The notes below the pieces were generated by a model. It was not told the origin of the DNA. It did no database searches and saw nothing but the letters and a program-made list of their open reading frames with translations. Both the position numbers and the translations under genes were made by a program. A stretch of 64,000 nucleotides of DNA from Escherichia coli (GTDB lineage Bacteria; Pseudomonadota; Gammaproteobacteria; Enterobacterales; Enterobacteriaceae), in the NCBI RefSeq assembly GCF_013315695.1, contig NZ_CP054355.1; one strand, written 5' to 3'. Position 1 is the first letter of the stretch. The number at the start of each line of letters is the position of its first letter. This document shows, piece by piece, positions 4,609-27,708 of this stretch.

Positions 4609-4615
4609 ACCATGG

Positions 4616-5392: not shown

Positions 5393-5560
5393 AGGGATAA
5401 TTGGCCGTTCAAGTTCATTTAACTGAAATTTAATTTTCATTTTTATGCTGAACATTTTATCAAACTTTTCCACTGTCAAAAAAATCAAAAAGACAGTAGA
5501 ACATAATTAATAAACAAATAGTTATACTTATCTTTATTAATATTATACCCAAGGAAATTT

Positions 5561-7822: not shown

Positions 7823-7890
7823 TGACAATTTCCGCTAGGTTCAGACAATACGTTTTCTCTCTTATGTCAATTTTATTGCAGGAACGAAAA

Positions 7891-9066
7891 ATGAATATTT
7901 TCACTTTATCCAAAGCACCGCTATACCTGTTAATTTCACTATTTTTACCCACGATGGCCATGGCTATCGATCCACCTGAACGCGAACTTTCGCGATTTGC
8001 CCTGAAAACGAATTACCTTCAGTCCCCTGATGAAGGCGTCTATGAACTGGCGTTTGATAATGCCAGTAAAAAGGTGTTTGCAGCAGTCACCGATCGTGTA
8101 AATCGTGAAGCCAATAAAGGCTATCTGTATTCGTTTAATTCAGATTCGCTGAAAGTCGAAAATAAATACACGATGCCATACCGGGCATTTTCGCTGGCGA
8201 TAAATCAGGATAAACATCAGCTCTATATCGGACACACCCAGTCAGCGTCCCTGCGTATCAGTATGTTTGACACCCCAACCGGCAAACTGGTAAGAACCAG
8301 CGACAGGTTAAGTTTTAAAGCGGCAAACGCTGCAGATTCGCGTTTTGAGCATTTTCGCCATATGGTTTACAGCCAGGATTCCGATACCCTGTTTGTGAGT
8401 TATAGCAATATGCTGAAAACGGCCGAGGGCATGAAGCCTCTGCATAAGCTGTTAATGCTCGACGGGACGACGCTTGCCTTAAAAGGCGAGGTTAAGGATG
8501 CTTACAAAGGTACAGCGTATGGTCTGACGATGGATGAAAAAACACAGAAAATCTACGTTGGCGGAAGAGATTACATCAACGAAATTGATGCGAAAAATCA
8601 GACGCTGCTGCGTACCATCCCGTTGAAAGATCCGAGACCACAAATCACAAGTGTGCAGAATCTGGCGGTGGACTCCGCTTCTGACCGTGCCTTTGTGGTG
8701 GTATTCGACCATGACGATCGTTCCGGTACAAAAGATGGACTCTATATTTTTGACTTACGCGACGGTAAACAGCTTGGCTATGTGCACACAGGAGCCGGAG
8801 CTAACGCGGTGAAATACAATCCGAAATATAACGAACTGTATGTCACCAACTTCACTAGCGGCACCATCAGCGTAGTGGATGCCACCAAATACAGCATCAC
8901 CCGTGAATTTAACATGCCGGTCTACCCAAACCAGATGGTGTTGTCGGACGATATGGATACCCTTTACATTGGCATCAAAGAAGGCTTTAACCGCGATTGG
9001 GATCCTGATGTGTTTGTGGAAGGAGCTAAAGAACGTATTCTGAGCATTGATTTGAAAAAGTCGTGA
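7891..9066 (+). CDS. senB: SenB/TieB-like secreted protein with YVTN-type beta-propeller repeats
   Basis: About 391 aa from MNIFTLSK with signal peptide; repeated KIYVGG / ELYVTNFTSG / LYIGI motifs; position after cjrC as in cjrABC-senB. Confidence 0.5.
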   Translation: MNIFTLSKAPLYLLISLFLPTMAMAIDPPERELSRFALKTNYLQSPDEGVYELAFDNASKKVFAAVTDRVNREANKGYLYSFNSDSLKVENKYTMPYRAFSLAINQDKHQLYIGHTQSASLRISMFDTPTGKLVRTSDRLSFKAANAADSRFEHFRHMVYSQDSDTLFVSYSNMLKTAEGMKPLHKLLMLDGTTLALKGEVKDAYKGTAYGLTMDEKTQKIYVGGRDYINEIDAKNQTLLRTIPLKDPRPQITSVQNLAVDSASDRAFVVVFDHDDRSGTKDGLYIFDLRDGKQLGYVHTGAGANAVKYNPKYNELYVTNFTSGTISVVDATKYSITREFNMPVYPNQMVLSDDMDTLYIGIKEGFNRDWDPDVFVEGAKERILSIDLKKS

Positions 9067-9865: not shown

Positions 9866-9919
9866 TGAACCGCCCCGGGAATCCTGGAGACTAAACTTCC
9901 TGAGAAAGAGGTAAACAGG

Positions 9920-10246
9920 ATGACTAAAAATACTCGTTTTTCCCCCGAAGTCCGTCAACGGGCAGTCCGTATGGTTCTGGAAAGTCAGGGCGAATATGAC
10001 TCACAATGGGCGACAATTTGTTCCATTGCCCCAAAGATTGGCTGTACACCGGAGACTCTGCGTGTCTGGGTACGCCAGCATGAGCGGAATACCGGAGGCG
10101 GTGATGGCGGGCTCACCACCGCTGAACGTCAGCGTCTGAAAGAGCTGGAACGTGAAAATCGTGAACTGCGCCGCAGTAACGATATCCTTCGCCAGGCTTC
10201 CGCTTATTTTGCGAAGGCGGAGTTCGACCGCCTCTGGAAAAAGTGA
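9920..10246 (+). CDS. IS629 transposase OrfA
   Basis: [19 protein letters not shown]... HTH/leucine-zipper OrfA of the IS3 family. Confidence 0.8.
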
Positions 10247-11133
10247 TGCCACTGCTGGATAAGCTGCGTAAGCTGTACGGGGTCGGACCGGTATGCAGTG
10301 AACTACATATTGCCCCGTCAACGTATTACCACTGTCAGCAACAGCGACATCATCCTGATAAACGCAGTGCCCGTGCGCAGCGCGATGACTGGCTGAAGAA
10401 AGAGATACTGCGCGTATACGATGGGAATCATCAGGTATACGGTGTGCGTAAAGTCTGGCGTCAGTTGTTACGGGAAGGAATCAGGGTAGCCAGATGTACA
10501 GTGGCGCGCCTCATGGCGGTTATGGGACTTGCCGGTGTTCTCCGGGGTAAAAAGGTCCGCACTACCGTCAGCCGGAAAGCCGTTGCCGCAGGCGACCGCG
10601 TAAACCGTCAGTTTGTGGCAGAACGTCCTGACCAGTTGTGGGTGGCTGATTTTACTTACGTCAGCACATGGCAGGGGGTCGTCTATGTGGCGTTCATCAT
10701 TGATGTGTTTGCCGGATACATCGTGGGGTGGCGGGTCTCATCGTCTATGGAAACGACATTCGTGTTGGATGCTCTGGAGCAGGCGTTATGGGCCCGTCGA
10801 CCGTCCGGCACGGTCCATCACAGTGATAAAGGTTCTCAGTATGTATCGCTGGCCTACACACAGCGGCTTAAGGAAGCCGGATTACTGGCATCAACAGGAA
10901 GTACAGGCGACTCGTATGACAACGCGATGGCGGAGAACATCAATGGTCTTTACAAAGCGGAGGTAATACACCGTAAGAGCTGGAAAAACCGTGCAGAAGT
11001 GGAACTGGCCACACTCACGTGGGTGGACTGGTATAACAATCGACGATTGCTGGAAAGGCTGGGCCATACTCCTCCGGCAGAAGCAGAAAAAGCTTATTAT
11101 GCTTCCATCGGAAACGATGATCTGGCAGCCTGA
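10243..11133 (+). CDS. IS629 transposase OrfB (DDE catalytic domain)
   Basis: IS3-family OrfB overlapping orfA in the -1 frame. Confidence 0.8.
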
Positions 11134-11175
11134 GTTCACAGATAAAACACTCTCCAGGAAACCCGGGGCGGTTCA

Positions 11176-11738
11176 CTTGGACTTAAATAGCTATAAACGT
11201 TTGTTGAATGGATGTATTTAGCGATAAAATCAGTATAAAAACCGTTATCAAAGAAGATGGACGTATACCCACCCAGACCATAGCTTTTAGTATCGCCATA
11301 ATAGCTGCCGCTCAGCTCTGCATTGGTACTTGTATGGGTAAATATTAAGCCAGTGTATAGCATTGCTGATTCAATTCTTATGCCTTTGTCTGCACCGAGT
11401 TGCAGGTGGTTGTATGTATTCTGATAACCGTCAGTGCCACTCCCCTGACCGAGCATATAGCGTCCCCAGACCCCGGCTTCTCCACTGTCGCGAATGTCCC
11501 CCATACGTTTATTGAGGTTATTCATTTCTGTAGAGAAAAGGCGGTAGCTGCTATTAGCAAAACTGGCCGCCGTACTGACTGCTTTTTTATCAGGCTCTGA
11601 GTTAAAGCCAATAATTGCCAGATTTGTACCGTTACCGTTATCACTAGTACCAAGTATCGGTGTTACGTTACTGAGCCCCGTTTTCTGGCTTATTGCCGAG
11701 AACATACTGAAATCGGTACCATCCGGTGCTTCAATTAG
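11176..11738 (-). pseudogene. autotransporter beta-barrel domain fragment trapped between IS629 and IS5
   Basis: Gly/Tyr/Ser-rich beta-strand-like sequence ending in aromatic residue; both ends cut by IS elements. Confidence 0.35.
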
Positions 11739-12934
<1,196 letters not shown>

Positions 12935-13569
12935 CTAAAGGCGTCTTTGGCTTCGGTCAGCGAACACTGCTGTTTTTCTTTGCAGGACGGTGAATCTTTG
13001 TAGTCCGTCATCTGCGCCAGCAGCTGATAGCTGTCGTCAAGCTGCATCTGGCTGCGCTCTTTTTCCATCGCCTGCACCGCTTTCTGGCTAAACGCCGCAG
13101 AGTCATCGGTGATCACCGGATTAAACGTTGGGTCCATCGTGCCCATTTTTTCCTGATGATGTACCGGAATGTCGCACCCAAGGAAAGCGCCGGTGATAAA
13201 GAATTGTGCCGTCGCAACGGTGCGTTGCAGACTGTTGGCATAGGTATATACCGTGTCCGGCGTCGGGCATTCGCCTGACGTGACCATCCCCAGCTCCGCC
13301 AGCCATTCTCGCATGTAGTGGCCCATATAAATTTCCAGCACACCGCCTTTCGTGGTGAGCTGCCCGCCGGGCACATCCCACTCCGGCCACTGATTCGGCG
13401 TGGACTGCTCCAGCACGCTGCCATTATTGGCCAACGGCGCGCGCAAGTTGTGTCGGCTCATCATCAACACTTGTTGCAGTTGATAACCTTCCGGCGTTGT
13501 CTGCGCTTGCGCGGCGGACGACAATAAAACAGCCCCTGCCACAGCGGCGGCGAGTATCAATTTTTTCAT
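12935..13569 (-). pseudogene. agp: glucose-1-phosphatase (histidine acid phosphatase) 5' fragment, truncated by IS5
   Basis: Signal peptide plus RHNLRAP (RHGxRxP) histidine acid phosphatase motif and Agp-like N-terminal sequence; reading frame runs into the IS5 end. Confidence 0.6.
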
Positions 13570-13690
13570 CCCTACAACCTCTTGTTGTTATCAATCCTCA
13601 TAGAGTGTGACAGAAATATGACATTTTTCCGGGAACGGTTTCGCAAAACGGGAGATTCCAGAAGATAACCGGCAGGTCAGCGTGTTCCGG

Positions 13691-14176
13691 TTACTCCGAG
13701 ATAAAAACCTCATACTTAATATTGCGGGCGCAATAAAAAGTGCCGTCCGTCAGATACAGTTCACGAAATCGCGTGTTATCAGAGATGTTGTCCAGCAGGG
13801 AACGTTCCGTATCGACAAATTCTTTTTGCACGCGGTAATGAACGGCGTTCTCCGTTTCAAAAGAGACATATTCCGTGGTGGCGTAGGGCTTATTTTTTGA
13901 TTTCACGTACACGATATATTGCACGGTACTGGCCGTCAGCCCCGTTTTCGCCGCGATCTCTTTGAGACTCAACGTCTCAGAGGCATAAAGCGCCTGAACC
14001 TGCGCTATGCGTCGGTGATTATACGCCGTCACCCGAAGGCTCAGTTTCAGCCGATAGGCCATATTCCGCACGGCGGTAATATTAGTGTGAAGCAGTTGCG
14101 CTATCTGCTCTGTCGTGAGGATGCCCGCGTTTTCCCGCAGAATCGCAAGGCTTTCGTCGTTCCAGATAAATGCCAT
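13691..14176 (-). CDS. putative DNA-binding protein with two helix-turn-helix-like segments
   Basis: 161 aa, no signal peptide; 25 bp downstream of the thioredoxin gene on the same strand. Confidence 0.4.
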   Translation of the reverse strand: MAFIWNDESLAILRENAGILTTEQIAQLLHTNITAVRNMAYRLKLSLRVTAYNHRRIAQVQALYASETLSLKEIAAKTGLTASTVQYIVYVKSKNKPYATTEYVSFETENAVHYRVQKEFVDTERSLLDNISDNTRFRELYLTDGTFYCARNIKYEVFISE

Positions 14177-14200: not shown

Positions 14201-14686
14201 TCATCGCGCCGCCAGGCGCGCAAACGTGGTCTCTAACTCAGACGGCTTACGCATACCCTGGTGTAGCTCCAGAACGCGTCCTTCGGAGTCAATCAGTACG
14301 GAGGTCGGCGTGCCGATCACCTGATAACGTTCCTGGGTAATGTTGAGCTGATCGCGCACCACCGGATAGGTTATCTGATGTTTTGCCAGCAGATCGTTGA
14401 TCCTGACCGTTTCAGGGTCGGTATTGACCGCCACAACCACCACTTTATCGCCCCATTTTTTGCTCAGCGCTTCCAGCGTGTCCATTTCCGCTAGGCACCC
14501 CCCGCATCCCGCAGACCAAAAATTCAGGTACACCGCCTTTCCTTGCCAGCGTTCAAGGCCTGACTCCTGGCCTTGCAGATCAAACGCCGCCAGCGCCGGG
14601 GCCGGTGCCCCGACCGCCAGCTTTTCTTCTTTACACCCGCTTATCAGGATCGCCGCCGCGAGTAACAGCACATTATGCCAGCGCAT
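14201..14686 (-). CDS. TlpA-like thiol:disulfide oxidoreductase lipoprotein
   Basis: Lipobox ILISGC; thioredoxin fold with CGGC active site (WSAGCGGC). Confidence 0.65.
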   Translation of the reverse strand: MRWHNVLLLAAAILISGCKEEKLAVGAPAPALAAFDLQGQESGLERWQGKAVYLNFWSAGCGGCLAEMDTLEALSKKWGDKVVVVAVNTDPETVRINDLLAKHQITYPVVRDQLNITQERYQVIGTPTSVLIDSEGRVLELHQGMRKPSELETTFARLAAR

Positions 14687-15368
14687 GTTGATTGGCCTCC
14701 TCACCCAGATATTTACCGTGTTGCAGCCGCAGAATACGGTCGGCAAACTGCCCAAGCGCAGGGTTGTGCGTCACCATCACAATCGTGCGCCCCTGACGAT
14801 GCAGATCGGTGAGCAGATCCAGCACCCGCTGCTCATTCTCTTCATCCAGGTTGCCCGTCGGTTCATCCGCGAAAATAACCGGCGGTTCGTTGACCAGCGC
14901 CCGGGCGATACACACACGCTGCTGCTCACCACCGGAAAGCTGGCTCGGCAGGTGCGTCACACGATGCCCAAGCCCTACCTGTTCCAGCACCTTCCTCGCC
15001 GCCGCTTCATCCACCACGCTGTGGTAATGCTGGGCGAGCATGATGTTTTCCAGCGCAGTTAAGAACGGGATCAAATGGAACTGCTGAAATACCAGGCCGA
15101 TTTTCTCGGCGCGAAAGCGACGGCGCCCCTCTTCATCCAGCGCGGCGGCATCGGTGCCATCAAGAAACACCTGCCCTTCCGTCGCCGTATCAAGGCACGT
15201 CAGAATATTCATCAGCGTGGTTTTACCAGAACCAGAAGCGCCCATAATGGCGACAAATTCACCCTGCGCAATGCGCAGATTAATGTCATCCAGGGCGGTA
15301 ACGTCACCGAACCGTTTGTATAAGTGGCGGGTTTCGATCGCCACCTGAGGGATATGCGTAACGGACAT
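14673..15368 (-). CDS. ABC transporter ATP-binding protein (MacB/LolD-type)
   Basis: Walker [10 protein letters not shown], signature LSGGEQQR, Walker [12 protein letters not shown]. Confidence 0.85.
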
Positions 15369-15372
15369 GGCG

Positions 15373-16533
15373 CTACTCTCCTTTCAGCACTTTAGCAGGC
15401 TCGACGCTTACCGCGCGTCGCACCGGAACAATCGCCGCCAGAATGGCGACCAGTAAAGACAACACCAGAGTAATGGGCAACACCGGCAGACGCAGTGAAA
15501 TGGCGGCATTAAACACCGTTAATCCCAACAGTTGCGCCAGCAAATATCCCAGCACCCAGCCGCACGCCACCGCCGCCAGCGCGATGATGCTGGTTTCCAG
15601 CAGAATTTGCCGCACGATATCGCCGTTGCTGGAACCAAGCGCTTTTTGCAGCGCAAACTCGCGCGCCCGCTCGCCGACAATCGCCATCAGCGTGGTATTC
15701 ACGCACAGCGAAGAGAGCGCCAGAATCACGATCGAGACCAGTCCCATCAGACCTTTAATTTTATCCAGCACCTGCCCTTCGGAAGCAGAGACCTTACGCA
15801 CCGGACGAATCTCCAGGTCAGGATACTGCGCCTGCAACCGGCTGGCATAGTTCTCCACCTGGCCGACATCGTTACTGACGCTCAGCAAGCCGTGGCTGAT
15901 TTTGCCCGGCTGATGCAGCCAGGCCTGCGCCACGTCGAGGCTGACGATCAGCATGTTGTCCGTCGCATCGCCAGACTCCACAATGCCTTTAATCTGCAAA
16001 TTCTTACGCTGATTGTGATCCACCAGCGTGATGCTGTCGCCCGGCTGCACGTTGAGGCGTTCCGCCAGTTTGACGCCGATCATCGCATTACGGTCGTCAA
16101 AACTAACGCCAATCCAGCTACCGGTGACCTGCCAGTACGGCACCAGTTTTTGCAGCGACTCGAACCACACGCCAACCATCACCACTTTTTCCAGCTCGGT
16201 ACGCGCCATGCCGTACAACCACGGACTGGCGCCATGCACCAGCCCCTGCGGCGCCTGATCGAGAATGCTCTGCAACTCCTGCTGCGGCATACTGGAACCG
16301 TGCCCCGGCCCGATGTAAAAATTCGCGCCGAAGGTGCGCAGTTCTTCGCTCATTTTGGTGTTAATGTCGAACCAGACGGCAGAAAGCGCCGTCACGATGG
16401 TCGCCCCCACCATCAGCGCGGCAAACACCACGCTGACCCGCTGAAAACGCAGACGCAGCGCCCGCCACACCAGCAGCCAGAGCATGGTACGTTTAGCGGC
16501 CATACAGCACCTCCACAGGATACAGCCGGGCAA
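15373..16533 (-). CDS. ABC transporter permease (FtsX/MacB-like)
   Basis: N-terminal TM, large periplasmic domain, C-terminal FtsX-type 3-TM bundle. Confidence 0.7.
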   Translation of the reverse strand: MPGCILWRCCMAAKRTMLWLLVWRALRLRFQRVSVVFAALMVGATIVTALSAVWFDINTKMSEELRTFGANFYIGPGHGSSMPQQELQSILDQAPQGLVHGASPWLYGMARTELEKVVMVGVWFESLQKLVPYWQVTGSWIGVSFDDRNAMIGVKLAERLNVQPGDSITLVDHNQRKNLQIKGIVESGDATDNMLIVSLDVAQAWLHQPGKISHGLLSVSNDVGQVENYASRLQAQYPDLEIRPVRKVSASEGQVLDKIKGLMGLVSIVILALSSLCVNTTLMAIVGERAREFALQKALGSSNGDIVRQILLETSIIALAAVACGWVLGYLLAQLLGLTVFNAAISLRLPVLPITLVLSLLVAILAAIVPVRRAVSVEPAKVLKGE

Positions 16534-17776
16534 TCCGCCGGGCCGGGAACCAGGTGCCGATCAACGCAATCAGTACCGCAATCACCAGTACGCACGGCAC
16601 CACAATCCAGGCAAAATTAAGCGGCGCGTCGAAGAGCATGACGCCAATCGCTTTCGCCAGCCCCCACCCGGCAATACATCCCAGCGCACCGCCAGCCAGC
16701 CCGCTGGACGCCGCTTCCAGGTAGAACAGCAGCATAATTTGCCACTGTCGCGCACCCAGCGCTTTCATCAAACCGATCTCTTTGGCGCGTTCCATAATGG
16801 TGCTGGTCATCAGCGAGGCGATCCCCATTGCGGAAGCCACCAGCGCCGCGACGGTAACGACCGCCATCAGCAACTGAATTTTATCGATCACCACCCCTTC
16901 GGACGCCGCGACCTGCCATACCGGGCGCACTTCCGCACCGGAAATCGCCTCTTCCAGCTGATGCGCGATCGACGACACATAGGCCGTGCAATACCAGAGG
17001 TCGTACTCTTCGGCATTGAGCGCGTCCAGGTTTTCCCGCGCGCGGCGGGACAGTTCGTTTTCCGGCACCGTCAGCGCCGAGACGCGAATCGCCTGCACTT
17101 TTCCGGGGAGCCCCAGCAGGTGCTGTACCGTGCTTAGCGGCATCACCAGTTGGTTATCTTCATCGCCGCCGCTGGAGAGGATACCGCTGACGGTGACCTG
17201 CACTGCTTCGCCTTCGGTACGTAATGTCAGCTTATCACCGGGTTTCCAGCCCATTTGCCGCGCCAGCGCGTGCCCGACTAAGGTCTGCGGCTCTGCGCCT
17301 GCGGGTTCCTGCGGCCAGTCGCCGGTCACCTGCCAGTATGGGCTGACCGTTTTCTGCCCCGTCTCATATCCCTCTTCATCAGGAATATCCACTGGCTGAC
17401 TGAAGAAAGTGCCCAGAATCCGCACTGGTTCTCCCTCCACGCTGGCTTCGCCGCCGAGCATCGGCGCAAACCCGACAATGTTGTTTCGCCAGAAGATATC
17501 TTTGATGTTCGGCAGCTCGGCTTCATCAAGAAAATCCTGACCGGAAAGCGGATTACTGCTCTCACTAAACAGCGCGGGCAGCGCAGCCTGTCCGGCGGGT
17601 TCAATCAAAATGTTCGCACCATAAGACTTCAGCTCTCTGGACATTTTGTCGCCGATATCAATGGACACCGCCAGCAGCGCCGAGATCAGGCTGGAGGCCA
17701 GAAAAACGGTGATTATCGCCAGCACTTTGCGGCGTAAATTGCGCCCCCAGGATTGTCGTAACATCCGCCACAGCAT
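16493..17776 (-). CDS. ABC transporter permease (FtsX/MacB-like), second copy
   Basis: Same architecture as the adjacent permease; overlaps it by about 40 bp. Confidence 0.7.
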   Translation of the reverse strand: MLWRMLRQSWGRNLRRKVLAIITVFLASSLISALLAVSIDIGDKMSRELKSYGANILIEPAGQAALPALFSESSNPLSGQDFLDEAELPNIKDIFWRNNIVGFAPMLGGEASVEGEPVRILGTFFSQPVDIPDEEGYETGQKTVSPYWQVTGDWPQEPAGAEPQTLVGHALARQMGWKPGDKLTLRTEGEAVQVTVSGILSSGGDEDNQLVMPLSTVQHLLGLPGKVQAIRVSALTVPENELSRRARENLDALNAEEYDLWYCTAYVSSIAHQLEEAISGAEVRPVWQVAASEGVVIDKIQLLMAVVTVAALVASAMGIASLMTSTIMERAKEIGLMKALGARQWQIMLLFYLEAASSGLAGGALGCIAGWGLAKAIGVMLFDAPLNFAWIVVPCVLVIAVLIALIGTWFPARRIARLYPVEVLYGR

Positions 17777-17778
17777 GA

Positions 17779-19158
17779 TTATTCCTCCCTCATGTCGGCA
17801 GGAACAAACTGCTCCGGCGTTTCACGGAAGCGTTCATAGTTAGCCTCTGACGAGAAGAACCAGGTCTTGCCGCCATAGCTGTATTTGTAATCGGCTGAGG
17901 TATTGGTCAACGTTGAACCATCGACCGGATCGGTCACTTTAATAGTCATGACCGTCGAGAAGTAGTTCACCCCTGTCGCCAGTTCTTTACCGGGGATCAC
18001 CAGCTCTTTTTCATCATTGTGCCAGTTTTCAATCGGCACCGGGTTACAGCCACCGGCCTTGCCGATAGACGGAATAAAAATATGCACTCCGCAGGCGACG
18101 CAGATAACCTGATTGCCCTCCATGACATAACCCTGATCGCCGCACAGCAGGCAGGCGTCGAACACCACGCCAAAACGCAGCTTGTCGGGATAGCGGTTAA
18201 TCACGAAGAAGCGCACCGCTTTGCCATCGTCCGCCACCCAGACGAAACGATGCAGTTTACCGTCACGAAGCTGTTCAACCGGCAGGCGCACCATGCCATC
18301 GCTCCCCAGCGTTACGGGCACGGCTTCAGAGAGTTGCGGCGGCTGCGAGGCCACTTTATCCCACCACAGTTGGCCTGCGATAACGACCACCGCGCAGCCG
18401 ATTGTGACCAACCACAGCCGCAAAGCGTTGCGACGCTGCGCCAGCGCCAGACGGTGAGCAATCGGTTCTTCGGTTTCCCGCGTCTGTCGAAAAGCCCGCA
18501 ACAGCGCCGGAAGCCAGCACAGCGCCAGGGCCAGCAGCAGCGCGGCTCCCGCCCAGTTATACAGCGCCGTGTTATTTGTGACTTTCGCCACGAAGCTCAG
18601 CAGTGATTTTCCCAGCGGAACAACCTGTAATTTCATCAGCAACAACAGCAGGTTGCCGCTCAGCGGCAGCCAGATCATCACCAGCAGAATCAGCGTTAAC
18701 GGCCAGTACAGGCCGCGAATACGCCGCAGCAGCATCGCGCAGAGTACGCCCGCCAGACAGAGGATCGCAAAAGCGAGAACGACGGCCGTCAGGTTTAACA
18801 GCAGGTCAGTATTCAGCACATGCGTACTGGTCAGCCCGCCCAGATTAGGGTCCAGCGCCCAATGGCGGGCAGCGCCGAAAATCAGAATCCCCTGCCACAG
18901 ATAGCGGATACGCGTTGAAGCCCACCAGAAACTGAGGACAAACAGCAGCGATACCATGACCTCCGCCCCAACCAGCAGCAGTTGTACCGGTTGGCTGCCG
19001 TGAATAAACAGTCCCGCCAGCACGCCGGCAATCAGCCCGGTCAGCAGCGTCCAGGTCAGCGGACGTAAAGAGGGAGGATCGTTTCGACTCCAGAGAACAC
19101 CGGAAAGAAGCGCAATGCAGAAAAAGACCTGTAGCGTCGTGACGAAAAAGTAACTCAT
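17779..19158 (-). CDS. polytopic membrane protein with C-terminal Cys-cluster and YHS-like domain (Cj1660-like)
   Basis: Multiple hydrophobic helices; C-terminal CLLCGD...CVACG...GGC and ..YGGKTWFFSS..ANYERF. Confidence 0.5.
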   Translation of the reverse strand: MSYFFVTTLQVFFCIALLSGVLWSRNDPPSLRPLTWTLLTGLIAGVLAGLFIHGSQPVQLLLVGAEVMVSLLFVLSFWWASTRIRYLWQGILIFGAARHWALDPNLGGLTSTHVLNTDLLLNLTAVVLAFAILCLAGVLCAMLLRRIRGLYWPLTLILLVMIWLPLSGNLLLLLMKLQVVPLGKSLLSFVAKVTNNTALYNWAGAALLLALALCWLPALLRAFRQTRETEEPIAHRLALAQRRNALRLWLVTIGCAVVVIAGQLWWDKVASQPPQLSEAVPVTLGSDGMVRLPVEQLRDGKLHRFVWVADDGKAVRFFVINRYPDKLRFGVVFDACLLCGDQGYVMEGNQVICVACGVHIFIPSIGKAGGCNPVPIENWHNDEKELVIPGKELATGVNYFSTVMTIKVTDPVDGSTLTNTSADYKYSYGGKTWFFSSEANYERFRETPEQFVPADMREE

Positions 19159-19261
19159 AACTTCGACTCTGTACGGCGGGTTGAATTAAGCGACGGGCAT
19201 ATGATCGGTCTGACCAACGCGCCAGAAGGGGGAATCCTCCTGGCGCGTTGGTTAGTCGGTT

Positions 19262-19792
19262 TTAGTTCAGACCGACATATTTAAACTCGTAGCTCACATC
19301 AAACGGTTTCCACCAGCGGCCTACGCCTGTTTCGCTGTCAGTATGGCGATGCATCCCGGCTTTTGACGGCGGTTCAATGTGGTAGGTCACTTTATAGTTG
19401 CCCACGCCCATCATTTTGATGTTCGCGCCATAGTGCGGGCCATCGCTGGCAACCATCGGCATGAAGGTGCCTTCCTGTTTTTCGCCCGTGTCGTTGTTGA
19501 CCAGGGTGTAGCTGATGGTCAGGTACGGGATCCATTCCCCTGCGCCAAAGCCGTTTTTATTGCCTTCTACAGCGTGGATATCCGCTTCAAGGTGAACATC
19601 GGCTTTTGCTGCCGGTAAGCCCATGCCGCGCGGTTCCATATCAATCGGTTGCAGGTAAACGGCCGCCAGCTCCATTTCATTCATGGTGACAGGCTCGCCT
19701 GCCGGGTACTCTTTAAAAGCAAACGCGGCTGGCGCAATGAAAATGCTGGCCATCACTGCGCTGGCAATCAGGGTTTTCTTCATGGTCATCAA
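19262..19792 (-). CDS. fetP: P19-family periplasmic iron-transport protein (FetP-like)
   Basis: 176 aa with signal peptide; immediately 3' of an FTR1 permease as in P19/FetP systems. Confidence 0.6.
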   Translation of the reverse strand: MMTMKKTLIASAVMASIFIAPAAFAFKEYPAGEPVTMNEMELAAVYLQPIDMEPRGMGLPAAKADVHLEADIHAVEGNKNGFGAGEWIPYLTISYTLVNNDTGEKQEGTFMPMVASDGPHYGANIKMMGVGNYKVTYHIEPPSKAGMHRHTDSETGVGRWWKPFDVSYEFKYVGLN

Positions 19793-19829: not shown

Positions 19830-21776
19830 TTATGGGTTATTTTTTATCGTCTCCCCGGGAACCGCGCTTTTGCGCCGCATCACCCACAGCGCCACCAGCG
19901 CCGCGAGCAGCAATACGACCTGCGGTAACAACGTTTCCACGTAGGGATAAATCCCCAGCCAGCTGATTTCAGGGAAGCCGTTAATCAACGTAGGCTGGAA
20001 CAGTTTGCCTTCCACCAGTTCCAGAACGCCTTTGCCCGCAAAGACGAAGGCCATCAGATACATGAAACTGCCGGTAAACATAAAGAAGGGTTTCAGCGGC
20101 AGGCGCACCACTGAGTAACGCATCACCAGCCAGGCGAGCAGCAGCACCACGCAGCCAATCACAAAACCGGCGCCAATCGCCATATGGCCGGATACCGTGT
20201 TTGCATCGCCAATCAGAGCGTAATAGAACAGCACCGTTTCCGCCCCTTCGCGGTACACCGCCAGGAAGCTGGTCAGCCATAGTCCGACCAGGGAGCCTCG
20301 CGACAGGGAATGAGACAGTTTGCCTTCCAGCCAGGCTTTCCAGTGGCGCGCTTCCACTTTGGACAGCAGCCAGTAACTCATAAAGAACAGCATCACGACG
20401 GCAATCAGCATCGTTATGCCTTCCAGCAGTTCACGGCTGGCGCCGGAGTTAGTAAACAGCATCTGGAAGATAGCGGCGGTGATGACGCTGGCGATCAGCG
20501 CCACAATTACCGACTGACGAATAAGCGGCAGCTTATCCTGATGGTTGTTTTTCACCATGTAGGCCACGATTGCCGCAACAATCAGCAGCGCTTCCAGCCC
20601 CTCGCGCACGATGATCATCAGACTATAGAGCAGCAGACTCCACTGGGTTTCTTCGCCTTCGCCCAGCATCGTCACGGCTTTTTGCAGATCCTGCGCCAGC
20701 GCGCTGGCCTCTGCATTCAGGCGCTCAACCGGCTGACCGGCCTTCATCAGACTGACCAGGCGGGTAAAATACGCCTCCAGCGTGGTTTTAAATGCCGAAT
20801 CGCGAGAGCCGATTTTGTTTTCCATGCCGCTGGCTTCGAAGCGGTCGAAGTAGGTATCCTGGATATCCAGAATCGCATTCTTCGCATCGCCGCCCTGATA
20901 GCGCGCTATCGCGTCCTGAATGCTCTGGTTAATTCCCGTCGTCACCTCAGCCCAGTCGGTGCGGTTATTTCCCTCGTCCGCCGCCGGAATGTTGTCTGCG
21001 CTTTGCGCTGCGGCAACCTGCTGATCGTCACGGGTGGTTGGCAAGCCGGGTAAGATATCCTCGATATCCTGTAGCAGCGTAGTGACCTGATAGGAGACAT
21101 CGTTGAGATGGTCAGGTTGCGCGGTCAGCGCAATCAGGGATGAGAATTGTTGGTTAATGGAGGCGGCATCTTTTGCAGAACGGTTTTGTCTGAGGGACAT
21201 CTCCATCTCAGAGTTTTTAAAGCCCTGATAGTGCGCCTGTTGAACGTGCTGACTGGCAACGCTGTAATTCCCGGCCTGATATTCAGTGACCGCCTGCGCC
21301 AGCAGATCGTCGATCGTCCTGAAACTCTCCTGCCAGTGAACGGCAATGTCGTCCCTGGACAGCGCGTTGTGCTGCTCTTCGGCCACCAGACGATGTCCGC
21401 CATCCAGCACCGGTTCCACTTCGCGCAGTGCGGCTTTCAGCCAGTCAATGCGCGCCTGGACGTCAGCGAGCGGTTTTTTCTCGCCAATCATTCGACGGAT
21501 CTCGCCGAATGCGCTCTCCATCTCGTAACTTTTGCGCGCGGAAATGTTGATGCGGATCGGCCCTTCCAGGTTCTCGAACACCTCAAAATAGGCCATTTGT
21601 ACCGTGCGGCGCGCCTCGTCGGCATGCTGTTGCTGATAAAGTTCCGCTGTTTTATCAAGACGTTGCTCGATATCTTCAATCAAAGGCGCATAATTCGTCG
21701 ACGCCCAGACACTCATGCTTATAAACAAGCCAAAGAGAGTAACCAACAAAGAGTTACGGAAGTTACGCACGTGCAC
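19830..21776 (-). CDS. fetM: FTR1-family iron permease with large N-terminal periplasmic domain (FetM-like)
   Basis: 648 aa; two RExxE motifs (REGLE, REGAE) in the C-terminal membrane domain. Confidence 0.7.
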   Translation of the reverse strand: MHVRNFRNSLLVTLFGLFISMSVWASTNYAPLIEDIEQRLDKTAELYQQQHADEARRTVQMAYFEVFENLEGPIRINISARKSYEMESAFGEIRRMIGEKKPLADVQARIDWLKAALREVEPVLDGGHRLVAEEQHNALSRDDIAVHWQESFRTIDDLLAQAVTEYQAGNYSVASQHVQQAHYQGFKNSEMEMSLRQNRSAKDAASINQQFSSLIALTAQPDHLNDVSYQVTTLLQDIEDILPGLPTTRDDQQVAAAQSADNIPAADEGNNRTDWAEVTTGINQSIQDAIARYQGGDAKNAILDIQDTYFDRFEASGMENKIGSRDSAFKTTLEAYFTRLVSLMKAGQPVERLNAEASALAQDLQKAVTMLGEGEETQWSLLLYSLMIIVREGLEALLIVAAIVAYMVKNNHQDKLPLIRQSVIVALIASVITAAIFQMLFTNSGASRELLEGITMLIAVVMLFFMSYWLLSKVEARHWKAWLEGKLSHSLSRGSLVGLWLTSFLAVYREGAETVLFYYALIGDANTVSGHMAIGAGFVIGCVVLLLAWLVMRYSVVRLPLKPFFMFTGSFMYLMAFVFAGKGVLELVEGKLFQPTLINGFPEISWLGIYPYVETLLPQVVLLLAALVALWVMRRKSAVPGETIKNNP

Positions 21777-21790
21777 ACCGCCAAAGAATG

Positions 21791-21812
21791 CAAATGATAA
21801 TTATTATCATAT
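21791..21812. promoter_or_regulatory. Fur box upstream of the fetM-like operon
   Basis: aatgataattattatcat, near-palindromic match to the Fur consensus, about 15 bp upstream of the fetM start. Confidence 0.6.
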
Positions 21813-22062: not shown

Positions 22063-22824
22063 TCAAAGATTAAGGTTATTTCGATCGCTGGCAAGACGCT
22101 GTAAGAATTGACCATATCCCTGCGGCCCCATCCAGTAGTTAATACTTTTCTCAACGCCGGTTGATGTCAACGTCGCACCGGAAATACCGTCAACGGTATA
22201 TTCATCGGCATGTTCAGGTTTATCCTGTACTATTTTCAATGCAGGATGTCCGCTGTTATCTAATAATCGTTTCCCTGGCCACTGTTTGCGCCAGTTGGCG
22301 TCTTCCACCCTAGCCCCCAGAAACGGCGTTTCCCGTTGCTGATAATAATACAGATTTCTCACCGTACGACCGTCCAGCCCCAGAGCAAGAAACGCATGCA
22401 TCATGGATTTCGCGCCCTTACCGGTAACTGGAATGATAACCTGCTGAATTTCATTATTTTTATCTTTCACAAAGAACACATCCGCCACCGTACAGCGCTG
22501 ACGAACCTGCGCTGGGTCGCGTTCAGGGGCAAGTTTTTCACACTTCTGCCGCGCGGTGTCCGCGCTGCTGCCAGCCACCAGTTCGCCGGAATCTAAATTA
22601 ACATGGCGTTGAATAATATAACGATGATAGAGCGTTTCGACTGATTTTTTATCCTGGGTCTCTGATTTCATCAGGCCCGCAGCGTGTAAAATTGCCGCCT
22701 GTTTTTCCTCCTCTGTCGGCTCCGTCATTTCTCCCTGGAACAGCATAAACCATGCCGCCGCCGCAACAAAAATAAGGACACAAAGCACCATCATTGATGC
22801 AACAATAATTTTACCCTTGCGCAT
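22063..22824 (-). CDS. orphan NqrC/RnfG-type FMN-binding domain protein, membrane-anchored
   Basis: N-terminal TM; C-terminal ..VIIPVTGKG..SMMHAFLALGLDG..YYQQRETP..DGISGATLTSTGV.. as in NqrC flavinylation region; no other nqr genes nearby. Confidence 0.6.
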   Translation of the reverse strand: MRKGKIIVASMMVLCVLIFVAAAAWFMLFQGEMTEPTEEEKQAAILHAAGLMKSETQDKKSVETLYHRYIIQRHVNLDSGELVAGSSADTARQKCEKLAPERDPAQVRQRCTVADVFFVKDKNNEIQQVIIPVTGKGAKSMMHAFLALGLDGRTVRNLYYYQQRETPFLGARVEDANWRKQWPGKRLLDNSGHPALKIVQDKPEHADEYTVDGISGATLTSTGVEKSINYWMGPQGYGQFLQRLASDRNNLNL

Positions 22825-23035
22825 TGAATTGTTATCCCTGTCAAAATGGAAATCGAAAAAATCGCCTGAACGTATCACAGACTTTCATTCAATTAAAACA
22901 GATATGCCATTATCAATTCAGGTTTGCAACGTCAGGCAGCGGTAAAAAATAATAACTGGCGTCGGTAAAAAAGCAGCAAAAATAACAGAAAACACGCTCT
23001 CCGCTCGTTTTACACATCCTTACAATGGGTTAAAA

Positions 23036-23060: not shown

Positions 23061-23567
23061 TCAAAACATGGCTGCCCGCCACAGACGTAACTTCATGCCC
23101 CAGTAGCTGGTCCAGCCGCTGGTCGTAGTTACCACCTGCCCCTTCGACACCACCACCAGCGTTGGCGTGACGCTGATTTCCCAGTTTCGTGATATCTCAC
23201 CGCCGCTATCATTCACGACGGGGAACGTCACCCTTTTACGCGATAACCAGCGGGAAACCTCCCCGTCATTACCGGAACGCAGCGCGATGGTCATGACGCT
23301 CTCCCCTTCCGACTGCAAACGGGCGACATCCGGCGTGGTGAAACGGCAGATACCGCACCAGCTCGCCCAGAAGTAGAGCAGCACCGGGCGTTCTTCACTG
23401 ATCGACGCCAGCGTTACGGTTTCCCCGTCCAGCGTATGCAGCGGCGTGCTGTCAAACATGGCCGGCATCTGCGGAGAACGCCAGACATCCAGCAGGATTA
23501 TCACGCCAGCCAGCAGAACCAGTAAGATCGCGCCTTCACGCAGCCAGCGGCGCAGTTTACTGAGCAT
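23061..23567 (-). CDS. scsD: ScsD-like membrane-anchored thioredoxin-like protein
   Basis: 168 aa, N-terminal TM, WASWCGICR CxxC motif. Confidence 0.65.
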   Translation of the reverse strand: MLSKLRRWLREGAILLVLLAGVIILLDVWRSPQMPAMFDSTPLHTLDGETVTLASISEERPVLLYFWASWCGICRFTTPDVARLQSEGESVMTIALRSGNDGEVSRWLSRKRVTFPVVNDSGGEISRNWEISVTPTLVVVSKGQVVTTTSGWTSYWGMKLRLWRAAMF

Positions 23568-23727
23568 GGGCCACCGCCAGTTTTTCTTTCACCACCGCCT
23601 CAAGGGTCTCCCACGATACCGCGCCGGGGATCATCTCGTCGCCAATGATGGTTGCCGGCGTCCCCTGAACGCCAACCAGCCGGGCGAGTTGCAGATTGGT
23701 GCTCAACGTCTCCATGCTTTTCTCATC
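23557..23727 (-). pseudogene. scsC: ScsC (DsbA-like) C-terminal fragment, truncated at IR copy B
   Basis: ..GVQGTPATIIGDEMIPGAVSWETLEAVVKEKL.. typical DsbA-like C-terminus; overlaps the scsD start. Confidence 0.5.
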
Positions 23728-24720: not shown

Positions 24721-27708
24721 TTAAGGCTGTTTTTTGTACTGACTGACATCAACTGCTCGCAAAGGACGATACTTCCCTTCAGCCAGCTTCTTATTGTTTT
24801 TCCAGATATAGTCCCCTGTCAGATTAATGTGCTCCCAGCCCAGCGGAGACAAATGTGACAACAATTGCTCATTAATATGTAGCCCTTTCTTTTTCAGCAG
24901 GTTAATGGCGTTTTCTATATATACGGTATTCCACAAAGTGATTGCGGCAGTGAGCAGCGTAAGCCCACTGGCGCGGTAACTCTGGTTTTCAATACCACGA
25001 TCCCTTATTTCTCCCAGACGATGCATGAAGACAGCTCTGGCAAGGGCATTCCGGGCTTCCCCTTTGTTCAGACCTGCCTGAACCCTACGACGAAGCGCCG
25101 GATCGCGGAACCAGTCCAGCATGAACAGTGTTCGCTCAATACGACCAATTTCTCTTAACGCCTTAGCAAGGCCATTCTGTTTCGGATAACTGGTCAATTT
25201 TTTCAGCATCAGAGAAGCGGTCACTGTTCCCTGTTTTATTGAGGTCGCCAGTCTCAGAATTTCATTCCAGTGTATTTTTATCTCTTTGATATTCAGGGGG
25301 GTTGTGGAGATAATTGACTGTAGAGCAGGATAGTTATCAGCTTTACCTTGAATAAACAAACGTTTGTCATGCAGATCCCGGATCCTTGGGGCAAAAGCGA
25401 ATCCCAGCAGATGCATTAGTGCAAAAACATGCTCCGTGAAACCTGCTGTATCGGTGTAATGTTCCGTTATATCAAGGTCACTTTCGTGATACAGAAGACC
25501 ATCAAGTACGTGGGTGGAATCACGAACACGACTGATTACTTTGGTATAAAACGGACTATATTGATCTGAGATATGCGTATAAAACTGCACCCCAGGTTCC
25601 TGACCGTACTTCAAATTAACCTGACCGGCATAGCGCCCATGACTGCCAACCCTAAAATTCTGGCCGTCAGAGGATGAGGTGGAACCGTCTCCCCATAATG
25701 CCGCCAGCGGTCGTGACTTCTGGGCATTAACCAGTTCTGCCAGTGCAGCAGAGTACGTTTCATCACGGATGTACCATGCTTGTATGTTTTCCAGCGAAGC
25801 TCGTGTGGTTCCCGGACAGGACTCTGCCATTTTTTCCAACCCTAGATTGATGCCGTCCGCCAGGATAGTGGTTAGTAGTAAACGATTATCCTGAGGACGG
25901 ATTAGCGGATTCTTAAGATGAGTAAAATGTCGCGAGAAGGCAGTCCATCGCTCGACTTCATCAAGTATCTCTGTAATTTTGGGGTGCGGTAGCATGTTGT
26001 AAATCAGGTCGGCCAGGGGAGAGACTGTTGAAGGAACGCTGTTATCCAGTGGGGTGATCTTTACACCTTTATCTGAAATATCCACATCAGGAAGCTCCCC
26101 TGCGACAGCCATTGCGTTAACTTCCTCCAGACGGGAGGCCAGTAGAGTCAGTCTGGCATTAAGATAAGCCCCGCATTCTGTGCCAACAGGTAAATTTAAT
26201 AGGTTATTATTTAATAACTTTTCGAAATCATCGTTAGGCATAAGATAATCATCAAAGTTTTTGTAGCGCCGGGAGCCCCTGACCCAGATATCACCCGCCC
26301 GCAGCGCCCCCTTTAGCTCATTCATTGCGCAAATTTCATAGTATTGTCGGTCAATGCCTGAGGGGGTGACCACCATCTTTCTCCAGCTCTCAGGAATGAA
26401 ATCCAGTGGTGCCGATGCAGGAACCTTTCGTAGCTGTTTACGGTACATATCACGAATAGTTTCAAGGGCATCATTAAGCGGCAACGCTGCCGAAGTGGCT
26501 CTCAGTTGCAGGGCCGATAGAAAACGAAAAGAATATTTGCGCAATGTACTGAATTTTTCGGTAATAAGATGAAGCGGCTCAAAATTATCCTTACGTGCAA
26601 GAAGCTTTGTTTCCTCCAGACTGGCGACAAAATCGTCCCACGGTAACACTCGTTCAATAGCAGACAGAGGATCTTCGCCTGCATTGCGTGCATCCAGGAT
26701 AGCCTGGCCAACAGAAACATACTGACGTAACTTTTGCTGTATCAACTTGCCCGTTTTCTGAAGACGCTCAGCCTGCTGATGTTTTGCCCGACTGAACATG
26801 CTGCCTAGAATACGTTCATGCAGTTCTATAATTTCATCAATGATTGTGGCTCTGGCCTCAGTCAGTACACAGACCATCGTTGCGTATCGACGAGCAGGGG
26901 AAAAATCAGCCAGATCGCGACTGCTCATTTTGCGGCCCTCACGCGCGAGTTTCAGCAATCGGTTCTGGTGAACGGTTCTCTCCACTCCTTCCGGCAGCGC
27001 CAGAGCTTCAATAGCGTTAAGGCGGTCAATGTGTTGCAGGACATTCTTTCCATTGATTTTCCCTGGAGGTTGAAGCAGCCACGTCAAACGGGATATTTGT
27101 TTTTCATTTGTCACCAACAGGGCATCAAGCGCAGATTTATGCGTGATATCAAGGTGCGCATTCAGCGTTGTATACACCGTTTTATCACCCAGTGTCATTG
27201 CTTCTGCACAGGTACGTTCCAGAACATCAATGCCTGGAATAATAATTCGCTGTTGATGCAGGTACTTTAGTAACTCCTCTGCGATAAGTATGCCTCTGTC
27301 CGTTCTGGTAGACAGAGGGAGCAGATGCCGGATACATTCTTTCTGAAGTGCACCGTTAAAGGCTTTCAGTTCAAGATATCGATAAAGTTCCCTCATATGC
27401 TCACGTCTGGTGGTATCACGACCGGAAACGTATTCCTGCCAAAGTTCTGCTGATAACTTAAGTCGAGCGCCAATGGTTTTTAGCAATTTTGCGGGTGGGG
27501 ATGATTTTTTATCCGGGGCAAACCCAATACTTTTCAGATAACAGAGAAGAACGGCAAAACCAAACCGGCTGGCAGGTTTACGGTGAGCATTGATAATTGC
27601 CAGATCCTGCTCACTGAAATACGTCATTCGAGTCAGTGTTAACTCATCGTCTGGCAATGCCAGTAATGATTCTCTTTCCGATAGAGAAAGAATCTGCCTC
27701 CTTGCCAT
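24721..27708 (-). CDS. tnpA: Tn3-family transposase TnpA
   Basis: 995 aa; stop codon lies inside the terminal IR as in Tn3-family elements. Confidence 0.8.
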   Translation of the reverse strand: MARRQILSLSERESLLALPDDELTLTRMTYFSEQDLAIINAHRKPASRFGFAVLLCYLKSIGFAPDKKSSPPAKLLKTIGARLKLSAELWQEYVSGRDTTRREHMRELYRYLELKAFNGALQKECIRHLLPLSTRTDRGILIAEELLKYLHQQRIIIPGIDVLERTCAEAMTLGDKTVYTTLNAHLDITHKSALDALLVTNEKQISRLTWLLQPPGKINGKNVLQHIDRLNAIEALALPEGVERTVHQNRLLKLAREGRKMSSRDLADFSPARRYATMVCVLTEARATIIDEIIELHERILGSMFSRAKHQQAERLQKTGKLIQQKLRQYVSVGQAILDARNAGEDPLSAIERVLPWDDFVASLEETKLLARKDNFEPLHLITEKFSTLRKYSFRFLSALQLRATSAALPLNDALETIRDMYRKQLRKVPASAPLDFIPESWRKMVVTPSGIDRQYYEICAMNELKGALRAGDIWVRGSRRYKNFDDYLMPNDDFEKLLNNNLLNLPVGTECGAYLNARLTLLASRLEEVNAMAVAGELPDVDISDKGVKITPLDNSVPSTVSPLADLIYNMLPHPKITEILDEVERWTAFSRHFTHLKNPLIRPQDNRLLLTTILADGINLGLEKMAESCPGTTRASLENIQAWYIRDETYSAALAELVNAQKSRPLAALWGDGSTSSSDGQNFRVGSHGRYAGQVNLKYGQEPGVQFYTHISDQYSPFYTKVISRVRDSTHVLDGLLYHESDLDITEHYTDTAGFTEHVFALMHLLGFAFAPRIRDLHDKRLFIQGKADNYPALQSIISTTPLNIKEIKIHWNEILRLATSIKQGTVTASLMLKKLTSYPKQNGLAKALREIGRIERTLFMLDWFRDPALRRRVQAGLNKGEARNALARAVFMHRLGEIRDRGIENQSYRASGLTLLTAAITLWNTVYIENAINLLKKKGLHINEQLLSHLSPLGWEHINLTGDYIWKNNKKLAEGKYRPLRAVDVSQYKKQP

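Follow-up and report, generated by a model that had tools for sequence, protein, structure and literature searches.

The Salmonella plasmid pUO-StVR2 carries the iron uptake cluster fetMP-flsDABCT followed by two non-conserved genes, flsE and flsF, and homologues of this set are present in Escherichia coli F11, Yersinia pestis, and Campylobacter jejuni (PMC7285068). The pUO-StVR2 products are the same as, or closely resemble, those of E. coli F11 and show 56-88% identity to those of Y. pestis and 27-57% identity to those of C. jejuni; the cluster supports better growth of Salmonella under iron limitation and replication in macrophages, and deletion of fetMP-flsDA lowers the iron content and impairs growth under iron limitation (PMC7285068). 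The whole C. jejuni cluster is regulated by Fur and iron, and its first six genes occur in a conserved order in 33 species of six phyla (PMC6083913, PMC10783030). In that organism, mutants deleted for fetA, fetB, fetC, or fetD each show the growth defect at low iron that a fetP deletion mutant shows, the two thioredoxins are redundant, and the authors state that neither a function of FetA nor a substrate of FetBCD is known (PMC10783030, PMC6083913). Cytochrome or thioredoxin genes have been noted as the eighth gene of the cluster, and flavin mononucleotide (FMN)-binding proteins are found in the Gram-positive clusters (PMC8238504, PMC6083913). Here, we describe a computational analysis of the five fls genes at positions 14201-19158, on the minus strand, of a 64,000-nucleotide stretch of E. 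coli DNA (RefSeq assembly GCF_013315695.1, contig NZ_CP054355.1), which is referred to below as the window.

The five open reading frames were confirmed at the coordinates listed in Table 1. They are flsD-flsA-flsB-flsC-flsT, known as fetA-E in E. coli F11 and C. jejuni and as flp in Y. pestis. An earlier reading of the same stretch from its sequence alone (the sequence-only reading) had identified an Flp-like module from a Fet-Flp-type system, and this is borne out by the upstream fetM and fetP genes, by identity to annotated plasmid clusters, and by the gene set of PMC7285068; its remark that the substrate and the redox role were unresolved also agrees with the published account (PMC10783030). 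The module is already known as the fetMP-flsDABCT, fetMP-fetABCDEF, or Flp system, and its identification at the gene level adds nothing new. The cluster of pUO-StVR2 and E. coli F11 (FetMP-FlsDABCT and fetMP-fetABCDEF, respectively) agrees with the window in gene set, gene order, and putative Fur control, flsE and flsF are also present in the window, and we find no difference of substance; these are the same element. The C. jejuni cluster (CJJ81176_1649-1656) is alike in its first seven genes and in the Cys motif of its DUF2318 protein; it has two downstream thioredoxins (CPSC and CGVC) where the window has one (CGGC), while the upstream NqrC-like gene of the window is an addition of its own lineage. 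The FtrABCD system of Bordetella and Brucella likewise combines a P19 protein (FtrA) with an FTR1 permease (FtrC) and with a membrane iron-sulfur (Fe-S) protein that is proposed to handle the electron. The cupredoxin FtrB and the polyferredoxin FtrD of that system are not part of the window cluster, in which neither a cupredoxin nor a Fer4-type protein was found by Pfam scan or annotation; their place is taken by an FtrD-like protein with a predicted Rieske fold, an ATP-binding cassette (ABC) system assignable to the type VII class, and a thioredoxin.

What the present analysis adds is the Rieske-type fold predicted for the Cys domain of FlsD, the lack of Cys in its YHS domain, the type VII class of the ABC system, an invariant Cys in FlsA, and the alternation of a flavoprotein and a cytochrome c beside the cluster. 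We tentatively propose a mechanism in which FlsD provides a redox center, FlsT a reductant, and FlsABC a mechanical engine; as a whole we regard it as plausible but short of probable. FetP and FetM would carry the iron, and the Fls proteins would be a periplasmic support machine rather than a second importer. FlsD would anchor a Rieske-fold domain in the periplasm, whose redox-active center, an all-Cys [2Fe-2S] cluster or alternatively a mononuclear Fe(Cys)4 site, would deliver single electrons to FetP-bound or chelated Fe(III) and thereby free iron for FetP and FetM, a step for which we draw a parallel to the reductive-oxidative iron uptake of yeast. FlsT would keep the thiols of FlsD (and of FlsA) reduced in the oxidizing periplasm and may feed in electrons from DsbD. 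By analogy with LolCDE, one FlsA, one FlsB, and two FlsC subunits may form a type VII engine in which cytoplasmic ATP moves periplasmic domains and acts on FlsD or FetP, with Cys263 of FlsA as the candidate contact point. Extra electron carriers could, depending on the lineage, be supplied interchangeably by the NqrC-like flavoprotein, by a small cytochrome c, or by a second thioredoxin. A stronger version is that FlsD-FlsA-FlsB-FlsC would be a new periplasmic redox machine, with an all-Cys Rieske-fold center that is built or maintained outside the cytoplasm, coupled to the ABC system through the FlsA Cys, and moved or gated relative to FetP. We consider this version improbable, and if true it would represent an energized reductive iron-uptake step without counterpart among the described ABC systems or Rieske proteins.

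The constancy of the gene set was assessed in a scan of one genome per species, in which 301 genomes had an FlsD relative; the best 80 of these loci, which come from Enterobacterales and Pasteurellaceae, were examined. The order FetM-FetP-FlsD-FlsA-FlsB-FlsC-FlsT was found in all 80, and shorter gene patterns were seen only where the retrieved locus DNA or the match ended early. Five metagenomic or genomic loci with FlsD homologues only about 22-31% identical to that of the window were also compared. The six-gene core of FTR1, P19, FtrD-like, FtsX, FtsX, and ABC genes was intact in all five, whereas the thioredoxin gene was retained in three, and the other two (L090 and L091) lacked both the thioredoxin gene and the YHS domain. 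The constant unit consists of the FTR1 and P19 proteins, the FtrD-like protein, and the ABC system, to which the thioredoxin and the YHS domain are accessories. As a separate observation, L091 has a gene for a multicopper-oxidase/cytochrome c fusion a few kilobases downstream.

The cysteine-rich and YHS domains of FlsD

Hydropathy analysis gave about eight transmembrane helices for FlsD. Its C-terminal 190 residues are predicted to be periplasmic because a strongly basic loop lies ahead of the last helix (positive-inside rule), and this part of the protein contains the matches to PF10080 (E = 2.5e-28, residues 297-400) and to the YHS family PF04945 (E = 6e-17, residues 408-454, 46 of the 47 profile positions). 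The CxxC...CxxC cluster that the sequence-only reading had noted in the C-terminus of this membrane protein is real and comprises five Cys residues, C336-x2-C339-x13-C353-x2-C356-x14-C371. All five are invariant in 68 diverse homologues and in all 80 loci; the residues D334, R304, R316, G343-Y344, and N372-P373 are also invariant among the 68 homologues. A CxxC-x13-CxxC-x14/15-C motif in the DUF2318 domain has been described previously (PMC6083913).

Sequence searches found no solved structure related to FlsD, even at an E value of 1, and the YHS segment alone matched only the AK9/CFAP repeats of eukaryotic structures, which is uninformative. When full-length FlsD and its residues 268-459 were modeled with AlphaFold2, the predicted local distance difference test (pLDDT) score was 95. 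The Cys-rich domain is modeled confidently with a Rieske-type fold, and its fold matches are the Rieske domains of electron-transfer proteins. When FlsD was aligned with the Rieske ferredoxin T4moC (PDB 1vm9) by hhalign (E = 0.13, not significant alone), C336 fell on Cys45, C353 on Cys64, and C356 on His67, C339 stood one residue past His47, and the sequence GGCNP of FlsD was aligned with HGINP. Four of the invariant Cys residues thus appear, from model and alignment register, to lie at or adjoining the positions of Rieske cluster ligands, and a fifth is added to them. While Rieske ferredoxins such as T4moC bind their cluster through CxH...CxxH, FlsD has CxxC...CxxC and an extra invariant Cys in the GGCNP loop. 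We read the domain as a putative Rieske fold in which Cys has replaced the two His ligands and the fifth Cys sits in the covering loop. Rieske proteins are mentioned nowhere in the Fet-system literature that we searched.

The sequence-only reading had further described a YHS/TRASH-like metal-binding segment in the same C-terminus. The YHS assignment stands, as seen from the profile match given above, but metal binding was overstated, since the ligand Cys residues are absent. The YHS segment of FlsD reads DPVDGS...FFSSEANYERF where that of a Cu-ATPase reads DPVCGM...YFCSLKCKDKF, with D, S, and N in place of Cys. Residues 405-459 contain no Cys, and none is conserved at the YHS ligand columns in the 68-sequence alignment, whereas the canonical comparator has three. 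Because the ligand Cys residues are lacking throughout the family, a metal-binding role of the FlsD YHS domain is not supported.

The FlsABC system

FlsC has intact Walker A, signature, and Walker B motifs. FlsA and FlsB each consist, by hydropathy, of one N-terminal helix, a large periplasmic loop, and three further helices, which is the MacB/LolC pattern; the loops comprise 201 and 265 residues, and the longer one, that of FlsA, is acidic (39 D/E vs 18 K/R). The FtsX, MacB_PCD, and ABC_tran matches in Pfam confirm the MacB-type system of an ATPase and two FtsX permeases reported by the sequence-only reading. Its word "tripartite" holds for the three ABC subunits but not for a complex with a periplasmic adaptor, as the annotation of the flanks examined contains no gene for an adaptor of the MacA type. 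The ATPase is encoded separately, unlike the fused nucleotide-binding domain (NBD) and permease of MacB.

The nearest solved relatives of the permeases are MacB, LolC/E, LolF, and YtrF, with the matches of FlsB (MacB, LolE, and LolF) all weak, and the best NCBIfam matches of FlsC are LolD, FtsE, YbbA, and the MacB NBD. None of the Fls ABC proteins reached the NCBIfam cut-offs of LolC/E, LolD, MacB, FtsE/X, or YbbA/P: the LolC/E model (TIGR02212) gave 71 and 58 bits against a cut-off of 362, the LolD model (TIGR02211) gave 209 against 308, and the MacB model gave 207, 55, and 32 against 966. Because all named families score so far under their cut-offs, the Fls ABC proteins form a separate subfamily of the "type VII" class that includes LolCDE, MacB, and FtsEX. 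With this class, FlsA and FlsB share the four-helix FtsX membrane fold and a MacB-like periplasmic core, and the arrangement of a two-permease heterodimer with a separate ATPase is that of LolCDE. A partner of the LolA, MacA, or EnvC type was not found for Fls, whose constant neighbor is FlsD instead, and FlsA differs from the described members in having an additional, conserved stretch of periplasmic sequence that contains an invariant Cys. Solved members of the type VII class (MacB, LolCDE, and FtsEX) transmit ATP-driven movement to periplasmic domains and do not pass a substrate through the membrane.

That the fls genes encode a well-characterized transporter unrelated to iron uptake (LolCDE proper, MacAB-TolC, or FtsEX) and merely lie beside fetMP has in its favor that LolD, FtsE, MacB, and LolC/E are the best-scoring named families. 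However, the domain searches, which the sequence-only reading had named as the place where such a transporter would surface, missed every curated cut-off by the differences given above, no adaptor gene is annotated nearby, and the genes are linked to FTR1, P19, and FtrD-like genes in all 80 loci. Identity with LolCDE proper, MacAB-TolC, or FtsEX is refuted by the scores and the linkage, and we regard this explanation as practically without a chance.

The extra segment of FlsA, PENxLSRKA...EYDxWYCTAYVSSIA, carries Cys263 (16988-16990). Its motif EYDxW[YF]C[TS]A[YF], including this Cys, was found in 79 of the 80 loci and also in the most distant loci, in which FlsD is about 25% identical. In the two most distant loci, the motif Cys is the sole Cys of FlsA, and FlsD has exactly the five Cys residues of its own motif. 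Cys263 of FlsA and the five Cys residues of FlsD together make six invariant periplasmic Cys residues in the pair. From this invariant Cys we infer that FlsA may touch the FlsD center or react directly with it.

These observations bear on the published working model, in which FlsABC (FetBCD) moves a substrate or a reductant across the inner membrane and the reducing power is relayed through FlsD and the thioredoxin or thioredoxins to FetP and FetM. The model comes from the authors of the sole gene-by-gene study (PMC10783030), it accommodates the requirement for all of fetA-D under low iron, and it fits the ABC genes being always linked to FlsD. It does not sit well with permeases of the FtsX/MacB_PCD type, of which the solved members (MacB and LolCDE) have no transmembrane substrate channel, and TlpA-type proteins normally take their electrons from DsbD or CcdA rather than from ABC exporters. 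The FtsX/MacB class was never considered in the Fet papers that we searched, where the class of the ABC system is not discussed and transmembrane transport is assumed (PMC6083913, PMC10783030). Transport of a substrate or reductant by FlsABC therefore seems to us rather unlikely, and a mechanical role of the kind we propose would agree with the class of these proteins.

Redox partners and the direction of electron flow

FlsT has the lipobox ILISGC (Cys18) and the active-site motif C61-G-G-C64; these and the Redoxin match corroborate the CGGC thiol-disulfide oxidoreductase lipoprotein of the sequence-only reading. Its best solved relative is ResA (4nmu, E = 8e-18), and a Pfam AhpC-TSA match was also obtained. 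The protein scored 95 bits against a ResA subfamily cut-off of 170, so that membership in TlpA/ResA/CcmG holds at the family level only; the thioredoxin fold, a membrane or lipid anchor, the CxxC motif, and the cis-Pro loop are the features that FlsT has in common with that family. The dipeptide within CxxC varies, being CGGC in Enterobacterales and CKSC, CNAC, or CKAC in distant relatives.

Other redox proteins are encoded beside the cluster. The NqrC-like protein of the window scored 396 bits with the NCBIfam NqrC model (cut-off 336) and keeps the flavinylation motif D-G-I-S-G-A-T, and no other nqr genes were found near its gene. In 18 related genomes, belonging to Citrobacter, Klebsiella, Raoultella, Superficieibacter, Phytobacter, Sodalis, and an Enterobacter species, such a gene precedes fetM by 150-300 bp in the same orientation, and 12 of the 18 have no scs-like genes. 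The NqrC-like protein is a probable lineage-specific accessory of the fet cluster. In 30 other loci, flsT is followed by a gene for a cytochrome c of about 100 residues with a signal-peptide-like N-terminus and a CxxCH motif. The two genes were found together in none of 66 loci (Fisher p = 2e-6). A similar parallel between FMN-binding proteins and thioredoxins has been drawn before (PMC8238504). DsbD-type genes lie nearby in Citrobacter and in locus L007. That proteins of one-electron and thiol redox chemistry have been recruited repeatedly supports a role of the module in periplasmic electron transfer.

Several points nevertheless tell against the mechanism that we propose. None of the 38 FlsD-family members scanned had a Pfam Rieske match even at an E value of 10, and a sequence-level link between FlsD and the Rieske families was rejected on this result and the nonsignificant hhalign alignment; because the sequence-level searches gave no link, we claim the likeness for the fold only. 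A Foldseek search of the FlsD domain against the PDB returned no significant match either, the best E value being 0.31, with Rieske oxygenases ranked at the top. Ahead of transmembrane helix 8 of FlsD, no conserved twin-arginine motif was found (RR occurs nearby in only 42 of the 68 sequences, at varying positions), on which ground export of a pre-folded Fe-S domain by the twin-arginine translocation (Tat) pathway was rejected, and the periplasmic domain probably crosses the membrane unfolded. Moreover, we know of no pathway that builds Fe-S clusters in the periplasm. The missing Tat motif and the lack of such a pathway favor a mononuclear site, a zinc site, or disulfides. In the family alignment of 68 sequences, the membrane part of FlsD has no conserved His, Cys, or Met, and hence no evident route by which electrons could cross the membrane. 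Some distant clusters lack the thioredoxin gene and the YHS domain, and because of this neither is essential to the core mechanism. Finally, the exclusivity of the NqrC-like and cytochrome c genes follows clades and so reflects few independent events, and the data on C. jejuni FetE discussed below imply the opposite direction of electron flow.

The first of two serious rivals concerns this direction. FetP-Cu(II) would oxidize Fe(II) in the manner of Fet3p and FtrA, FetM would import the resulting Fe(III), and FlsD would accept the electron and pass it to FlsT acting as an oxidant, to a cytochrome c, or to a flavoprotein, which would make FlsD a functional analogue of FtrD. Oxidase-dependent transport has a precedent in the FTR1 family, and Cu(II)-FtrA has been reported to oxidize Fe(II) (PMC11966278). 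FetE of C. jejuni reduced insulin slowly, and from fetEF mutant data the authors propose an oxidase role for FetE/F (PMC10783030). The Pfam name "FtrD-like" also fits this direction, as does the linkage of a small cytochrome c gene in 30 loci. On the other side, FetP of E. coli F11 has been proposed, according to the summary given in PMC7285068, to be a reductase that helps the use of Fe(III), and the FMN-binding partners in Gram-positive clusters have been read as components of a ferric reductase (PMC8238504, PMC6083913). Relatives in the TlpA/ResA family are usually reductants, and an onward electron path through the membrane domain of FlsD is not visible. On balance, we judge FlsD to be an unlikely electron acceptor and retain it, tentatively, as a donor.

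The second serious rival assigns no redox chemistry to FlsD. Its Cys residues would hold structural zinc or form disulfides, FlsD and FlsABC would act purely mechanically, for example by stripping iron from chelators or gating FetP and FetM, and FlsT would serve correct folding only. The Cys region gave weak zinc-ribbon Pfam matches in 12 of the 38 members, the lack of a Tat motif speaks against a pre-assembled Fe-S cluster, the type VII class is mechanical by precedent, and the periplasmic domain of FlsA is acidic, all of which would suit this rival. The fold matches of the Cys-rich domain, however, are electron-transfer Rieske domains with the Cys residues at or beside ligand positions, and a thioredoxin, a cytochrome c, and a flavoprotein have been repeatedly recruited to the cluster. 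We accordingly give a purely mechanical FlsD a low probability.

Gene organization, regulation, and plasmid surroundings

As calculated from the coordinates, the junctions between successive fls genes are gaps of 2 nt (flsD-flsA) and 4 nt (flsB-flsC) and overlaps of 11 nt (flsA-flsB) and 14 nt (flsC-flsT), and because of these tight junctions they look like one translationally coupled unit. Longer starts are offered by the list of open reading frames for flsT (14755) and flsB (16533), and the start at 14533 was not used; the RefSeq starts at 14686 (flsT) and 16503 (flsB) are a better fit to the lipoprotein signal and the gene packing. RefSeq labels the products of the cluster as FTR1 family iron permease, iron transporter, Fe-S-containing protein, two ABC permeases, ATP-binding protein, and TlpA family disulfide reductase. 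The Pfam scan placed fetM and fetP directly upstream of flsD on the same strand. FetM contains two REXXE motifs, REGLE and REGAE. Since its first approximately 360 residues are periplasmic, a signal peptide is expected; the RefSeq start (ATG at 21716, 628 aa) drops a signal-peptide-like N-terminus, which the 20 residues added by the GTG at 21776 would form, and the gene calls for FetM in Citrobacter are 646-649 aa long.

Table 1. Coordinates of the fet-fls genes, regulatory sites, protein domains, and adjacent genes in the window
Feature	Position	Strand	Remarks
flsD (fetA homologue)	17779-19158	-	459 aa; PF10080 FtrD-like (formerly DUF2318) and PF04945 YHS
FlsD periplasmic Rieske-fold Cys5 domain (predicted)	17959-18270	-	Cys motif at 18040-18153
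FlsD Cys-free YHS domain	17797-17937	-	PF04945
flsA	16493-17776	-	427 aa; Pfam FtsX, E = 7e-22; MacB_PCD, E = 3e-9
flsB, second FtsX/MacB-type permease	15373-16503	-	376 aa; Pfam FtsX, E = 4e-18; MacB_PCD, E = 2e-10
flsC, ABC ATPase of LolD/FtsE/MacB-NBD type	14673-15368	-	231 aa; ABC_tran, E = 3e-36
flsT, TlpA/ResA-like thiol:disulfide oxidoreductase lipoprotein	14201-14686	-	161 aa; Redoxin, E = 2e-18
fetM, FTR1-family iron permease with long periplasmic N-terminal domain	19830-21776	-	PF03239, E = 1e-49
fetP, periplasmic P19-type iron (copper) binding protein	19262-19792	-	PF10634, E = 6e-70, 149 of 150 profile positions
Fur-box match upstream of fetM	21790-21808	.	overlaps promoter-like -10 hexamers
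Stem-loop in the fetP-flsD gap	19213-19252	-	directly after the fetP stop codon
Stand-alone NqrC-like FMN-binding membrane-anchored protein	22063-22878	-	NCBIfam NqrC and Pfam FMN_bind
flsE, non-conserved 161-aa open reading frame, helix-turn-helix-like	13691-14176	-	downstream of flsT
flsF, truncated histidine acid phosphatase	12826-13569	-	downstream of flsE

The putative Fur box upstream of fetM, GCAAATGATAATTATTATC, has three mismatches to the 19-bp Fur consensus, and three Fur-box-like sites were found in the window where 0.01 are expected by chance. Before the NqrC-like gene and before flsD, no Fur box was found even with six mismatches allowed. The fls genes would then be the downstream half of a Fur-controlled operon that starts with fetM and fetP. 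A hairpin with a 17-bp stem lies in the 103-nt gap between fetP and flsD, and the 106-nt spacer between the two genes has a minimum free energy of -39.6 kcal/mol (z = -5.9). At this point, nearly every related locus has a hairpin too, of unrelated sequence; in Yersinia, a T-run comes after it, as in an intrinsic terminator. The hairpin may lower the expression of the fls genes relative to fetMP.

The 7.6-kb segment from flsT through fetM is present as a sequence at least 99% identical in 839 of 5426 complete E. coli genomes (about 15%), and 868 of the 877 matching places are on plasmids. The window DNA is 100% identical to these IncF-type plasmid copies, which have the cluster annotated identically in the 839 genomes. 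Since about every seventh complete E. coli genome has the cluster, on conjugative plasmids associated with virulence and resistance, the function of Fls is medically relevant, and the structural reading given here turns an "unknown function" into specific testable predictions.

The closest chromosomal relatives of the cluster are those of Citrobacter (FlsD 89-91% identical), in which it lies between a set of genes for a 120-aa protein and DsbD-like, DsbA-like, and TlpA-like proteins and a full-length histidine-phosphatase gene. In domain order and sizes, this set resembles the scsABCD locus of Salmonella. The flanks on the plasmid contain, within 23061-23727, a partial DsbA-family gene and a gene for a ScsD-like thioredoxin of 168 aa (23061-23567) and, within 12826-14176, flsE and the truncated flsF, all on the minus strand and in the same order as in Citrobacter chromosomes. 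The partial DsbA gene, the 168-aa thioredoxin gene, and the truncated phosphatase gene are, to judge from this order, likely remnants of a captured chromosomal segment that was cut by insertion sequences, and the operon on the IncF plasmid would have been captured from a Citrobacter-like chromosome. The thioredoxin at 23061-23567 was considered as a second Fet thioredoxin like FetF of C. jejuni and rejected, as it co-occurs with fet only in Citrobacter; because it is the last gene of the DsbD-like/DsbA-like/TlpA-like set on the Citrobacter chromosome, it does not belong to the core.

Elsewhere in the window, there are IS3- and IS5-family elements, a truncated autotransporter gene, and a Tn3-family transposase and resolvase (9900-12800 and 24721-28516), and the F-type transfer genes traI, traD, traG, and traH lie at about 29000-52000. 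Because of this content of insertion sequences, Tn3-family genes, and F-type tra genes, the window is a piece of an IncF-like conjugative plasmid. The other two Fur-box-like sites are at 844-862 and 3638-3656, and one of them stands just before a gene set at 3691-9066 that includes a TonB-dependent receptor (5561-7822) and senB/TieB (7792-9066); this set is probably a second iron-related locus on the plasmid.

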